Assembly: GCF_030013595.1 (NCBI RefSeq) | Contig: NZ_CP122768.1 | Length of the DNA stretch: 64,000 nt | Reading direction: 5' to 3' (one strand) | Source of the DNA: Escherichia coli | Lineage (GTDB): Bacteria; Pseudomonadota; Gammaproteobacteria; Enterobacterales; Enterobacteriaceae | Shown: one piece after another, positions 714 to 8,933 of the stretch | Numbering within the stretch: position 1 is the first letter of the stretch | Layout of the letters: each line of letters opens with the position of its first letter | The notes under the pieces: model-generated | What the model saw: only the letters and a program-made list of their open reading frames with translations | Told to the model about the DNA's origin: nothing | The model's database searches: none | Translations under genes and position numbers: made by a program

Positions 714-1811
714 ATGAAAAAATTAACAGTGGCAATTTCTGCTGTAGCTGCATCAGTACTGATGGCGATGTCTGCTCAGGCAGCTGAAATTTATAATAAA
801 GACAGTAACAAGCTGGATCTGTACGGGAAAGTTAATGCCAAGCACTACTTTTCCTCTAACGATGCAGATGATGGTGATACTACTTATGTTCGTCTGGGCT
901 TCAAAGGCGAAACCCAAATCAACGATCAGCTGACTGGTTTCGGTCAGTGGGAATATGAATTCAAAGGCAACCGCGCTGAATCTCAAGGTTCCTCCAAAGA
1001 CAAAACCCGTCTTGCATTTGCAGGCCTGAAATTCGGTGACTACGGCTCAATCGATTACGGCCGTAACTACGGTGTAGCATACGACATCGGTGCGTGGACT
1101 GACGTTCTGCCAGAATTCGGTGGCGATACCTGGACCCAAACAGATGTGTTCATGACTGGTCGCACCACTGGTGTTGCAACCTATCGTAACAACGACTTCT
1201 TTGGTCTGGTTGATGGTCTGAACTTTGCTGCTCAGTACCAAGGCAAAAACGATCGTAGCGATTTCGATAACTACACCGAAGGTAACGGTGATGGCTTCGG
1301 TTTCTCTGCTACCTATGAATACGAAGGATTCGGTATCGGTGCAACTTATGCGAAATCTGATCGTACCGACACTCAAGTTAATGCAGGGAAAGTTCTTCCT
1401 GAAGTATTTGCTTCCGGTAAAAATGCAGAAGTTTGGGCCGCAGGTCTGAAATATGACGCTAACAACATTTACCTGGCCACTACCTATTCTGAAACCCAGA
1501 ATATGACTGTATTTGCTGATCACTTCGTTGCTAATAAAGCTCAAAACTTCGAAGCTGTTGCACAATATCAGTTCGATTTCGGTCTGCGTCCGTCCGTTGC
1601 TTACCTGCAATCTAAAGGTAAGGATCTTGGAGTATGGGGCGATCAGGACTTAGTCAAATATGTTGATGTAGGTGCAACCTATTACTTCAACAAAAATATG
1701 TCTACTTTCGTTGATTACAAAATCAACCTGCTTGACAAAAATGACTTCACTAAAGCACTCGGTGTAAGCACTGATGACATCGTTGCTGTAGGTCTGGTTT
1801 ACCAGTTCTAA
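714..1811 (+). CDS. nmpC: Outer membrane porin NmpC (OmpD/OmpC family), prophage-encoded, intact 365 aa
   Basis: Signal peptide [23 protein letters not shown], porin motifs, C-terminal ...VGLVYQF; ORF track start at 654 is an upstream in-frame extension. Confidence 0.85.
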
Positions 1812-1948
1812 TCTGATTACGAAAAAGATATGTTGCGGGAGGCGTTGCCTCCCCAACATATAAGTGGCTCCCTCAAGCCACTTCCTTTAGGAGCACAACC
1901 TTGCTTCTAACTATATAAACCTTCTGTTATATATTACCCTTTATTTTT

Positions 1949-1973
1949 GGGGGCGTTGCAACGCCCCATTTTT
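1949..1973 (+). terminator. Rho-independent terminator downstream of nmpC
   Basis: Perfect hairpin ggggcgttgcaacgcccc followed by atttttaat. Confidence 0.55.
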
Positions 1974-2000
1974 AATAACTTTCAGTAAACAATTGGCATA

Positions 2001-2399
2001 TTAATTAGAGTTATTAACAACGATATCCATCTCTAACCGGATATCTAATGCCATTAACATCCCTTCAATTATGCCCTCAGCCTTCTGTAACCTTTTCCCG
2101 ATATAACCATCAGAGCAGCAATGCTTACCTGCCAGTGACATGAATGTCATACCGACTACATAATAATCTACTAATAAATCGTGCAAATCGCTGTTGTTCT
2201 TTTTCAGACGGGCCATGCACCCGCAAATAATCATCGCGTCATCGTCACAACATTGCGGGCGAGATTTTACTTTTGAAGGAATTAATCCCTTAAAACCGGC
2301 GGCAATGGACGACCAGGTCACATCTTCATGATTATTAGCCGCCCACGCTCCCCAACGTTCAAGAACCATCTGAATATCACGCATTAACTTTCTCCACAA
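2001..2399 (-). CDS. quuD: Late-gene antiterminator Q (QuuD-like)
   Basis: 132 aa; sequence matches my recall of DLP12 QuuD; sits directly upstream of the porin/lysis region as in K-12. Confidence 0.75.
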
Positions 2400-5590: not shown

Positions 5591-6084
5591 TAAGCCCCCA
5601 CGTAATTCCCTGACAGATACCACTCTTCACCCGATGCAGCGCGCTTGCTGCTTTTCCGTAAACACCGCTCACGACGCGCAAGAAAATTGTTTCGCTCTTG
5701 CTGGGAGTGGCTTTCACGGAATGCCGCCATCCACACCGTTGCAGCACGACGGTATAAGCCCCTGGACTCCAGTTCTTCCGCCTGGCGGGTCAGGCACAAA
5801 ATAACCCGGGGATCGTTAGTGCCGACATAGAAATTGCGCACAGGTCTGGATTCACGAACTGGTTGCGGTTCCGGCTCCTGCGGTATCTCAGTCAGCCGCG
5901 GGAAATGTCTGCGTGTATCCCCTTCACAACGGTGAGCCACACGCCCACTCTGACGTAACTTGCTTGCTGACTGCAGAACGCGCTGTCGTGAGTAACCTGC
6001 AAAAGCATCCGCAATGTCTCCGGAAGTACACCCCGGATGGGCTTCAATGAATTTCTGAACGTCATTCAAAAGACTCATGATCAC
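5590..6084 (-). CDS. Hypothetical phage protein in replication module
   Basis: 164 aa, translationally coupled to the replication gene upstream and the methyltransferase downstream. Confidence 0.45.
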   Translation of the reverse strand: MIMSLLNDVQKFIEAHPGCTSGDIADAFAGYSRQRVLQSASKLRQSGRVAHRCEGDTRRHFPRLTEIPQEPEPQPVRESRPVRNFYVGTNDPRVILCLTRQAEELESRGLYRRAATVWMAAFRESHSQQERNNFLARRERCLRKSSKRAASGEEWYLSGNYVGA

Positions 6085-7022
6085 CCCCTGAATCCTGCCG
6101 GGATCTGGCTGTAGTCCACGTTGTCGTAACTGGCTTTGAAGTACGGGTCTTCGCGTTTTTCGGTGTACGTGCTGACGGACGGCGATAAGCGCAGGGAAAG
6201 CTCATCCCATTTTTCCCGCAGCTTCGACGGGCTGAGCACGTTACGGCACCAGAACGGATCGCGACTGACGCGGCTGTACATCTCGCAGATTTGTTTATGA
6301 GTACGACCATCCTGCACACACATCAGGCGAATTTCGTTTGCCCAGGCTGTCCAGTTCGGTTCTTTGGGACGAACCACCTCGCCGTCACATTCGGCGGCAT
6401 GCTCGTACAGGGCGATGATTTTTTTCCAGAGCCACTGTGCGCAGGTCAAATCATCCTGCGTCCCCCACTGGCGCTTTTTAGGGCTGAATACAACCGCATC
6501 AGGATGGCGAGTTAAAAAATCCTGTTCAGCCGTCTGCGTGTCCGGTTGCGAAGAGTCCGGACGAGAAGGTTTTTTATCTGACGGATCATGTTTTGATTTT
6601 ACTGACGGATCCCCGCCAGATTCTGACGGGTGAAAACCCGCTTTTTTGCCAGATTTCGACGCATCAAATTTTGACGGGTCAGATTTTGATGCGTCAGATT
6701 TTGACGGGTCAGAATCTGACAGTTGAGAAAATGCCGCTGCCTGAAGCTTCGCAACGTTAAGCTGATAAACATTCGACGCATTGCGGTTACCCTGGCGACG
6801 CGCCTTACGCGTTAACCAGCCTTCTGCTTCCAGCCGTGCGATAGCCGTTCTGACGGTACTCATCCCCGCGCCAATCTGGCGGGCAATGGTTTCAATCGAT
6901 GGCCAGCACACACCTTCGTCATTACTGAAATCAGCCAGGCGGGCCATAATTGCCACGCTGGATAATTTCATGCCTGACGCTGCGCAACCATCCCATACAT
7001 AGCCGGTTAATTTAGTGCTCAT
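6081..7022 (-). CDS. Putative phage replication initiation protein (N-terminal wHTH, O-like role)
   Basis: 313 aa; HTH segment CWPSIETIARQIGAGMSTVRTAIARLEAEGWL; repetitive SDPSKSDASK linker encoded by internal iterons. Confidence 0.55.
   Translation of the reverse strand: MSTKLTGYVWDGCAASGMKLSSVAIMARLADFSNDEGVCWPSIETIARQIGAGMSTVRTAIARLEAEGWLTRKARRQGNRNASNVYQLNVAKLQAAAFSQLSDSDPSKSDASKSDPSKFDASKSGKKAGFHPSESGGDPSVKSKHDPSDKKPSRPDSSQPDTQTAEQDFLTRHPDAVVFSPKKRQWGTQDDLTCAQWLWKKIIALYEHAAECDGEVVRPKEPNWTAWANEIRLMCVQDGRTHKQICEMYSRVSRDPFWCRNVLSPSKLREKWDELSLRLSPSVSTYTEKREDPYFKASYDNVDYSQIPAGFRG
6575..6730. repeat. Iteron array (putative prophage ori) inside the replication gene
   Basis: About 8 tandem copies of a TGACGG(A/G)TC-like unit (tctgacggatc, actgacggatc, tctgacgggtg, ttgacgggtc x2, ttgatgcgtc) followed by an A/T-rich stretch. 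Confidence 0.55.
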
Positions 7023-7031
7023 GACCGACCT

Positions 7032-7370
7032 CTATTTCCCTGAATTTACGACGAAACTGTTCGAGCGGACTGAAGCACTCATGCTCATAGCCTTCGCGGA
7101 GGTAGATAACCCGTTGTGTTTCCGGTTCCCAACGAATGACTCTGACGGGCACTCCGTAGTGATCTTTGAACCAGCGGTTAACTTGTCGCAAAGGACTGTC
7201 TCCTTCTGCCGGTTGAAATCCCCCACAGCCCACTCTGCAAAGCTGTGGGTTACAATTTCCCTGTCACCTGGTACATTCACTGCATAGCAATATTCCACCT
7301 TCGCTTTTCCACCCGGTACAGGAAGCGCAATCAGTTGCGAGCGACGGTAGTGTGTTGTTAAACTGTTCAT
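7032..7370 (-). CDS. YmfM-like e14-type phage protein
   Basis: 112 aa; 4-nt overlap with the upstream CII-like gene; C-terminal half overlaps an alternative-frame ORF (7012..7233). Confidence 0.45.
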
Positions 7371-7936
7371 GCGTTAGTTTCTCCACAACCAGAAGCAATC
7401 GACGCCACGACGCCCGGAGCTGCACACTCGCGGGCGTCATTACTTTCTGAAATGCAAAAGATTTTGTAGACCAGTGCTGCATGCTCCTGCAGCTTCGAAA
7501 TTGAGAGATACAGCTCGTCGTTAATTGCTGTCTTCTCATGCGGTTCCACTACACCGTCTTCGATTGCTGAACGAATCTGTTTTGAATAACTGCCGATCTG
7601 TTCAATGACTTCCAGCAGACGCTGGTTAATATCGGCGTTGTCCACATCCTCGACGTCAGGAAGCGACACAAAGACGCCATTTGCAGACTGCGCCACAGCA
7701 TCAGCAATGAAGTGAGTGCCACCAGCACGCTGTAAAACCATTGCCCATCCCAGCGGGAAAATCTGATCGCCATCTGCACGAAGGCGGTTGAATAAAGCGT
7801 TTTCTGTTACATCGAGCCAGTCAGCCGCTTCAGCGTAACCACCCGGCAACGCCGCGATAGTTTTTCTGACAGCTTTCACGTACCACTCAGGCTGTTTTTC
7901 TATTTTCCAGTGATGCTTACCCACGATTAGCCTCAT
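7367..7936 (-). CDS. YmfL-like / CII-type phage regulatory protein
   Basis: 189 aa, directly downstream of cro in the rightward operon. Confidence 0.55.
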
Positions 7937-8258: not shown

Positions 8259-8933
8259 ATGAAAACAATCCATGACATCCGGCGGTCTAACGCCCGAAAA
8301 CTGAGAGATGGTGTTGGAGGGAATTCTTCCTTTGCCACTATGATTGATCGCGAGCCAACCCAGACCAGCAGGTTTATGGGAGATGGTGCTACTAAAAATA
8401 TCGGTGACAGCATGGCACGACACATCGAAAAATGTTTCGACCTGCCTGTCGGATGGCTCGATCAAGAACACCAGACAACGAACATCACAAAAAAACCTGA
8501 TGTTTCAATCACTAATAAACAAATCACATTAGTCCCTGTCATATCATGGGTACAGGCCGGAGCATGGAAAGAAGTTGGATATTCTGAGGTTGATTTGAGC
8601 ACAGCAGAAACGTATCCCTGCCCTGTACCCTGTGGGGAAATGACTTATATCTTGCGGGTGATAGGTGATTCAATGATTGATGAGTACCGCCCGGGAGACA
8701 TGATTTTTGTCGATCCTGAAGTACCTGCCTGCCACGGTGACGACGTTATTGCATTGATGCACGATACAGGTGAAACCACCTTCAAAAGGTTGATAGAAGA
8801 TGGGACACAGCGTTATCTCAAAGCGTTAAACCCAAACTGGCCTGAGCCTTACATTAAGATCAACGGTAATTGCTCTATAATTGGAACTGTGATTTTCTCA
8901 GGAAAACCAAGAAGATACAAAATCAAAGCCTAA
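8259..8933 (+). CDS. CI-like prophage repressor (HTH plus S24 LexA-like peptidase), CohE-like
   Basis: 224 aa; C-terminal S24 region ...VIGDSMIDEYRPGDMIFVDPEV...; divergent from cro. Confidence 0.8.
   Translation: MKTIHDIRRSNARKLRDGVGGNSSFATMIDREPTQTSRFMGDGATKNIGDSMARHIEKCFDLPVGWLDQEHQTTNITKKPDVSITNKQITLVPVISWVQAGAWKEVGYSEVDLSTAETYPCPVPCGEMTYILRVIGDSMIDEYRPGDMIFVDPEVPACHGDDVIALMHDTGETTFKRLIEDGTQRYLKALNPNWPEPYIKINGNCSIIGTVIFSGKPRRYKIKA

Follow-up and report, generated by a model that had tools for sequence, protein, structure and literature searches.

ymfM and a DUF4222 gene as a probable out-of-frame overlapping pair in the early operon of an e14-like prophage

Small genes lying largely within another gene are well known from lambdoid phages, where in the Rz/Rz1 spanin pairs of lambda the smaller gene is read in the +1 frame of the larger one, and where several arrangements of the pair exist across relatives. 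Coupling of translation by termination and reinitiation at closely spaced stop and start codons is likewise known, in phage as well as bacterial operons. Here we analyse a locus comparable to both, found in a stretch of 64,000 nucleotides of Escherichia coli DNA (assembly GCF_030013595.1, contig NZ_CP122768.1), hereafter called the window. Its minus strand carries the early-right operon of a prophage that is lambdoid and e14-like, in which ymfM and a small gene of the DUF4222 family share part of their DNA, each being read in a frame of its own.

One of these genes has a published phenotype. Ansari et al. cloned the ymfM “open reading frame” in pBAD24 and observed filamentation and loss of the Z-ring; they proposed ymfM as SfiC, which had been unidentified for more than 35 years according to the preprint (bioRxiv 10.1101/2020.11.19.390815). 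The clone is treated there as encoding one protein: the second frame is not mentioned, and controls of start codon, stop codon or frame are not described (bioRxiv 10.1101/2020.11.19.390815). Division inhibition by YmfM is known only from this K-12 pBAD24-ymfM experiment (bioRxiv 10.1101/2020.11.19.390815), the other papers found on ymfM reporting transcript induction only. As for DUF4222, none of the five papers found to mention it connects it with ymfM, and a description of the overlap between the two was not found either.

Our conclusion is that ymfM and DUF4222 very probably are a genuine out-of-frame overlapping pair of protein-coding genes. The evidence comes from selection, open frames and start signals, and it favours the first of three explanations that a first-pass annotation, made from the letters and a list of open reading frames (ORFs), had offered: a real overlapping gene, a frameshift product or a mis-called frame.

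Two genes in two frames

The two ORFs reported by the first-pass annotation as overlapping out of frame, 7032..7370 (112 amino acids, aa) and 7012..7233 (73 aa), were both found, on the minus strand. The longer one is ymfM. The 73-aa ORF does exist, read from a GTG, but its length is not that of the gene, which encodes 59 aa and starts at the TTG at 7191. The features of the overlap are as follows; pLDDT is the predicted local distance difference test of AlphaFold2, and dN/dS the ratio of non-synonymous to synonymous substitution rates.

7032..7370, minus strand: ymfM, 112 aa, TAG stop at 7032..7034
7173..7370, minus strand: N-domain part of ymfM, residues 1-66, from pLDDT, dN/dS and alignment
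7035..7172, minus strand: tail part of ymfM, residues 67-112, Ser/Thr-rich and predicted disordered
7012..7191, minus strand: DUF4222 gene, 59 aa, TTG start at 7189..7191, TAA stop at 7012..7014; coding sequence WP_001250269.1 of the NCBI Prokaryotic Genome Annotation Pipeline (PGAP)
7200..7205, minus strand: AAGGAG, Shine-Dalgarno sequence of DUF4222, within ymfM codons (K-E), 8 nucleotides (nt) upstream of the TTG
7032..7191, minus strand: dual-coding stretch, 160 nt in two frames
7192..7233, minus strand: upstream extension of the 73-aa ORF, with the GTG at 7233, probably outside the DUF4222 protein

Codon position 1 of DUF4222 is codon position 3 of ymfM, so that ymfM is the +1 frame of DUF4222, its codons being made of DUF4222 positions 2 and 3 and position 1 of the next codon. 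From 7191 downward, the ymfM tail is this +1 frame. The placing of the DUF4222 start comes from homologues, which have an ATG, GTG or TTG at the position of L15 of the 73-aa ORF, preceded by a GGAG or GAGG motif; 73 aa is therefore a maximal ORF only. Many homologues also carry stops in the DUF4222 frame just upstream of the start. With the TTG at 7191 as start, the real overlap is 7032..7191.

The DUF4222 product matches Pfam PF13973 (68.7 bits against a gathering cut-off of 27, E 3.2e-19, model positions 1-52 of 53) and the PHROGs family phrog_1343. It is, on the pattern of substitutions described below, a real gene under strong purifying selection (ratio of about 0.12). A compact fold had been guessed for it from its letters alone, and this was borne out by the Pfam match (E 3e-19) and by the AlphaFold2 model, whose mean pLDDT is 85; the fold so modelled, with confidence, may be a small SH3/Tudor-like barrel. 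Serratia BZS1, Citrobacter phiNP and others also have DUF4222, with no ymfM overlapping it.

YmfM is 98% identical to K-12 b1148, and related database proteins are 94-98% identical. It matches phrog_1170 over residues 1-112 (E 6e-70), in a gene order shared with K-12. In its AlphaFold2 model, residues 7-66 have a pLDDT of about 80-88 and form three beta strands and a helix (42-66). The C-terminal part, described as Ser-rich in the first-pass annotation, is indeed Ser/Thr-rich from residue 69 to 112, predicted disordered, with pLDDT below 50. A fold search of YmfM against PDB returned nothing significant; sequence searches of PDB chains gave no match for either protein, and NCBIfam holds no model for either. 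The dN/dS of the N-domain is 0.17-0.49 between e14-type lineages, and 0.20 in a second subtype, in a sample picked blind to the ymfM frame. The YmfM N-domain (about 60 residues) is thus real and constrained, judging from sequence comparison, and predicted folded from the model.

Two other features of the region were considered and rejected. Masking of the DUF4222 start by RNA structure was examined by folding 7150..7260, which gave z = -1.6 and one strong hairpin in the conserved FAEWAVGD codons, absent from other N-domain subtypes. An antisense ORF of 90 aa (7015..7287, plus strand) has homologues annotated in some phage records (QBQ71618.1 and URC09955.1, in loci L004/L005); nearly every DUF4222 gene, whether linked to a ymfM-like ORF or not, has its codon-aligned antisense frame open, and the 90-aa ORF is therefore a shadow ORF.

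Selection on the shared stretch

Three sets of loci were assembled. A tblastn search with either product gave eleven phage records, and six contigs were taken because they encode ymfM-like proteins that have diverged; eighty viral contigs were obtained through a DUF4222 alignment, a sampling blind to the ymfM frame. A DUF4222 hidden Markov model located the gene in 181 of 182 loci, giving 115 distinct DUF4222 nucleotide sequences. A first scan of viral contigs, with the N-domain alignment, had yielded e14-identical copies only, and the apparent excess of third-position polymorphism in the N-domain was left unused because this sampling biased it. A scan of species-representative genomes gave two loci only.

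A read-in ORF was defined as at least 50 open codons upstream of DUF4222 in the +1 frame, and loci having one are called linked. In every linked locus the +1 frame stayed open for at least 52 further codons (typically 52-59), to the end of DUF4222, and the rule extends to DUF4222 proteins sharing as little as about 40% identity. In unlinked DUF4222 genes, +1 stops occur within 3-17 codons in most lineages (Serratia BZS1, the phiNP type, and the L122, L159, L163 and L178 groups). No lineage has the +2 frame of DUF4222 open. The first-pass annotation had taken conservation of one frame alone, with stops accumulating in the other, as what would speak against an overlapping pair; the ymfM frame is without stops wherever a ymfM-like ORF reads in.

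The read-in ORFs are all ymfM-like, 108-118 aa long, with several N-domain subtypes that have in common the pattern MNSLT..QLR..P..G...Y...V.(N/T)HS.A..VG; their tails are Ser/Thr-rich and poorly conserved. Conservation of ymfM-like ORFs spans phages of Escherichia, Klebsiella, Pantoea, Citrobacter and Yersinia.

The openness expected by chance was estimated by synonymous shuffling, where the DUF4222 protein is kept fixed, codons are redrawn from local codon usage, and openness of 50 codons in +1 is scored. Chance openness was 2.7-10.6% per lineage, and about 3% for the lineage of the window. When sequences were clustered at 80% nucleotide identity, the +1 frame was open in 13 of the 13 clusters with a read-in ORF. 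The joint chance probability would be about 4e-17 if clusters were independent, a product of per-lineage probabilities that overstates significance because the lineages are related. Between most lineages, dS of DUF4222 exceeds 1.2 or is incalculable, its synonymous sites being saturated or nearly so.

Recent changes were then counted on the edges of minimum spanning trees connecting close relatives. In the overlapped group, changes silent for DUF4222 that would create a stop in the +1 frame were absent, against 9.4 expected (Poisson P 8e-5). In the unlinked control, 4 were seen for 3.5 expected, and the neutral expectation is therefore well calibrated.

Changes within the overlap were also classed by their effect on each protein, with the following result.

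DUF4222 silent, YmfM altering: 164 changes, 31.8 sites, rate 5.15
DUF4222 altering, YmfM altering: 53 changes, 82.9 sites, rate 0.64
DUF4222 altering, YmfM silent: 28 changes, 32.1 sites, rate 0.87

The rate of 0.64 for changes altering both proteins, against 5.15 for those silent in DUF4222, gives the ratio of about 0.12 for DUF4222. For the YmfM tail, amino-acid constraint was undetectable (dNN/dNS 0.73, versus 0.87 in the control group). Naive dN/dS values above 1 in the tail are an artefact of the overlap, and positive selection on it was rejected; site classes were used for this reason. The composition of the tail was shifted: Ser plus Thr exceeded the mean of synonymous shuffles in 16 of 16 representatives, which is not so in unlinked +1 frames.

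As far as substitutions, open frames and shuffling inform us, we show here that both reading frames are kept by selection. Both are open beyond chance in diverged homologues, and purifying selection on amino acids within the overlap was found for DUF4222 alone. The pattern that the first-pass annotation had named as refuting an overlapping pair was not observed: the ymfM frame is kept open, although amino-acid conservation within the overlap is restricted to DUF4222. For the tail (about 45 residues), the selection shown here by the same comparisons acts against stops only and, weakly, towards a hydrophilic, Ser/Thr-rich composition.

The replication-gene start and the role of the tail

Next to DUF4222 lies the replication gene of the prophage, and the order of the operon is cro, the cII-like ymfL, ymfM, DUF4222 and the O-like replication gene. 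The cro-like gene is ymfT, between ymfK and ymfL; perC-like, dam and rusA genes lie beyond the replication gene. The neighbours that matter for the following are:

8259..8933, plus strand: ymfK, cI-like repressor
7367..7936, minus strand: ymfL, cII-like regulator, Pfam Phage_CP76
6081..7022, minus strand: O-like replication initiator (HTH_36), ATG at 7020..7022

The TGA stop of ymfL (7367..7369) overlaps the ATG of ymfM (7368..7370) as ATGA. The start of ymfL itself varies with the source, 7936 for the longest ORF (189 aa) and 7924 for PGAP and K-12 (185 aa). At the other end, the last 11 nt of DUF4222 are also the first 11 of the replication gene. The TAG of ymfM begins 12 nt before the replication-gene ATG in the window, and the DUF4222 stop begins 8 nt after it.

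This geometry recurs. Of 19 overlapped representatives, 18 have a ymfM-like stop that begins no more than 12 nt ahead of the replication-gene start, be it ATG or GTG, and no more than 11 nt beyond it (the start was found automatically for 17 of the 18 and read from the sequence in L111, where the stop is at +8). In the 19th, L113, it lies a few codons past the probable GTG start. A rare codon of DUF4222 (ATA, TTA or GTA) is often what gives rise to the ymfM-like stop. The DUF4222 stop itself ranges from +1 to +44 relative to the replication-gene start, and many lineages have an ATGA junction between the two genes.

Several architectures were observed. The overlapped one is that of e14 and most lineages. 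In L118 and L181 (positions about 860-1075) the genes are split with an ATGA junction: an N-domain ORF in a different frame ends by a TGA that overlaps the ATG of a separate 59-aa ORF (MKTAKTS...), and this ORF runs across DUF4222 in the +1 frame, with a chance of openness of 0.003. Adjacent, tail-less genes are found in YeP1 and in L154-L160, and in Citrobacter phiNP a Rha gene separates the two. In Entomohabitans (L088), DUF4222 is largely deleted and a 78-aa ymfM-like ORF is kept. Stand-alone N-domain ORFs, as in YeP1, phiNP and Entomohabitans, have 53-78 aa. In the group of Yersinia phages, the stop of the N-domain ORF forms an ATGA with the ATG of DUF4222; the +1 frame then has its next stop at +89, which suggests that it is untranslated there.

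Separately, the annotated 383-aa and 277-aa “antirepressor/regulatory” genes of L096 (mEp460, 1052..2203) and L097 (Stx2_14744, 1184..2017) traverse DUF4222 in the +1 frame, then cross a hairpin plus T-run just past its stop. Their Rha-like domain begins only at about MATIPTL/MATVPVS, and these annotations are therefore probably over-extended.

The replication gene is intact in the window (313 aa). In K-12 e14 about 72 codons of it are left before a junction with a terminase fragment (ymfN / oweE-aaaE), so that the present prophage is less decayed than K-12 e14. Within the gene, at 6602..6724, five copies of a 15-nt periodic repeat (CAGATTTTGACGGGT-like) encode SDxSK repeats; these CAGATTTTGACGGGT-like repeats look like origin iterons inside an initiator gene, as in lambda O.

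The reading that we prefer is the following. Codons of the ymfM tail cross 53 of the 59 DUF4222 codons in the +1 frame, and DUF4222 would be translated from its own Shine-Dalgarno sequence and TTG, both of which are embedded in ymfM. Ribosomes would traverse DUF4222 in the ymfM frame, their termination taking place where those of the replication gene bind. The tail may then be mainly a translated bridge or spacer rather than a sequence-specific domain, and this bridge may deliver ribosomes to the replication-gene start by termination-reinitiation coupling. Another possible role is that the tail is needed simply as a flexible C-terminal extension.

A number of points weigh against a functional overlap of this kind. 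The idea of translational coupling is based on the geometry of stops and starts alone. Ribosomes translating DUF4222 likewise end at or near the replication-gene start, which leaves the need for ymfM ribosomes unexplained. The YmfM and DUF4222 products are known here from their genes alone. YmfM-like proteins without a tail exist in YeP1, phiNP and L088, and the tail is therefore dispensable for N-domain function in some phages; nor does the tail carry the amino-acid constraint that was sought. The edges of minimum spanning trees merely approximate independent changes. Finally, the +1 frame can be open by chance, as it is in three unlinked DUF4222 lineages (the L101/L156 group, L165 and L097).

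Some of these points would be natural if only the N-domain of ymfM mattered, the tail being an unselected read-through, passively inherited in an open +1 frame. Predicted disorder, undetected amino-acid constraint, tail-less homologues and unlinked DUF4222 genes open in +1 are all compatible with it. We nevertheless regard it as unlikely. A passive tail should gain stops, and none of the 9.4 stop-creating silent changes expected was seen, while the control behaved neutrally; it should not remain open in 13 of 13 diverged clusters, at 3-11% chance each, with synonymous sites near or at saturation between most lineages. The Ser/Thr shift in 16 of 16 representatives and the stop position fixed at the replication-gene start are not expected of it either, nor is the split architecture, where a separate +1 ORF is kept with its own ATG.

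Annotation, filamentation and comparison with known systems

Current annotations disagree on the locus. In the curated K-12 record NC_000913.3, ymfM appears as “cell division inhibitor YmfM” and the gene in the other frame is left out, while PGAP calls DUF4222 only, in K-12 as well as in a strain identical to the window, and omits ymfM. The two main annotation tracks are thus in conflict, one gene being missing from each. PHROGs has two separate families, phrog_1170 for YmfM and phrog_1343 for DUF4222, and phage records are inconsistent, one gene, the other, or an antisense ORF being called.

A mis-called frame, the third explanation offered at the outset, is ruled out for both ORFs. That DUF4222 alone is a gene and ymfM a mis-call, as the PGAP annotation of K-12 and of the identical strain implies, would fit with the lack of a Pfam or NCBIfam model for ymfM; it is very improbable, since the non-overlapping 5′ half is under purifying selection in the ymfM frame, the protein is conserved in phages of several genera and has a predicted fold, ymfM is joined to ymfL by an ATGA junction, and its removal would leave a gap of 175 nt in a tightly packed operon.

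Another explanation is a programmed -1 frameshift fusing the YmfM N-domain to DUF4222. Fusion proteins do exist in databases (P0031, P0053, P0059 and P0065), and a run of five G is present at GTG GGG GAT near 7233, at the end of the N-domain. A search for a slippery heptamer near 7233, proposed by the first-pass annotation, found no X XXY YYZ heptamer in frame in any of 15 representative loci. Moreover, stops in the DUF4222 frame separate the N-domain from the DUF4222 start in 8 of 17 representatives (L003, L099, L007, L090, L110, L111, L115 and L092), and DUF4222 has its own Shine-Dalgarno sequence and start. The fusion proteins show four different junctions and are therefore indel or assembly variants, so that a programmed event is hardly credible.

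As separate observations on such variants, a frameshift at the G run (about 7225..7235) in P0065, which has 14 member sequences, joins the N-domain to the frame of the 73-aa ORF and gives a 119-aa protein, and in L015 a W codon of DUF4222 is mutated to a stop. Each has the appearance of a variant due to decay or sequencing, in a cryptic prophage.

Lastly, that ymfM alone is a gene, the 73-aa ORF being a chance or shadow ORF as implied by NC_000913.3, which lists nothing in the other frame, can hardly be maintained against a Pfam score far above cut-off, strong amino-acid constraint within the overlap, DUF4222 genes standing alone beside replication genes, a conserved Shine-Dalgarno sequence and start, and a confident fold prediction.

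An out-of-frame pair of genes bears on the published phenotype. The DNA of the pBAD-ymfM clone takes in 53 of the 59 DUF4222 codons, together with the start codon and the ribosome-binding site of that gene. As most of DUF4222 is thus carried by the clone, the filamentation (SfiC) phenotype is not yet assignable to YmfM alone, and the assignment of SfiC to ymfM calls for frame-specific controls. A bolder proposal, to which we give a small chance of being right, is that DUF4222, and not YmfM alone, causes or is needed for SfiC filamentation, and that ymfM, DUF4222 and the replication gene constitute one translationally interlocked module. Were this so, the module would tie host division arrest to the onset of phage replication, and the tail bridge would set the expression of the replication gene.

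The arrangement is common among E. coli genomes. A 601-bp query covering ymfL-ymfM-DUF4222 (6900..7500) matches E. coli 2014C-4587 at 100% identity and K-12 e14 at 98.3%. Of 5,426 complete E. coli genomes, 1,931 (about 36%), K-12 included, contain at least 80% of this query. The locus is also a clean natural case of overprinting in which selection keeps a frame open, with selection on its sequence undetected, and as such is useful for calibrating methods that detect overlapping genes.

How does the locus compare with what has been described? The closest relative is ymfM of K-12, which is the same gene: the DNA is 98% identical, both products have 112 aa, and the place in the operon, after ymfL, is the same. 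The difference lies downstream, in the replication gene, intact with 313 aa here and truncated and fused to a terminase fragment in K-12. The DUF4222 product, for its part, belongs with Pfam PF13973 and phrog_1343, its 59 aa spanning nearly the full model. New here for the family are the predicted SH3/Tudor-like fold, its usual site directly upstream of, and overlapping, an O-like replication gene, and its overprinting by a ymfM-like ORF in many lineages. That genes of phages may overlap, or be embedded in one another, is familiar; the present pair, and what follows from it for SfiC, appear undescribed.

With Rz/Rz1 the locus has in common a small gene nested in the +1 frame in a lambdoid phage, and a variety of arrangements: overlapped, split, adjacent and separated for ymfM/DUF4222. 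It differs by its operon, its functions and its unrelated sequences. It differs also in that both overlapping parts are functional sequence in Rz/Rz1, whereas the YmfM tail is without detectable amino-acid constraint. With the known systems of termination-reinitiation, the likeness is one of geometry only, in the ATGA junctions and in the ymfM-like stop near the replication start; what sets the locus apart from them is that two upstream ORFs, in different frames, converge on one start, which is unusual.

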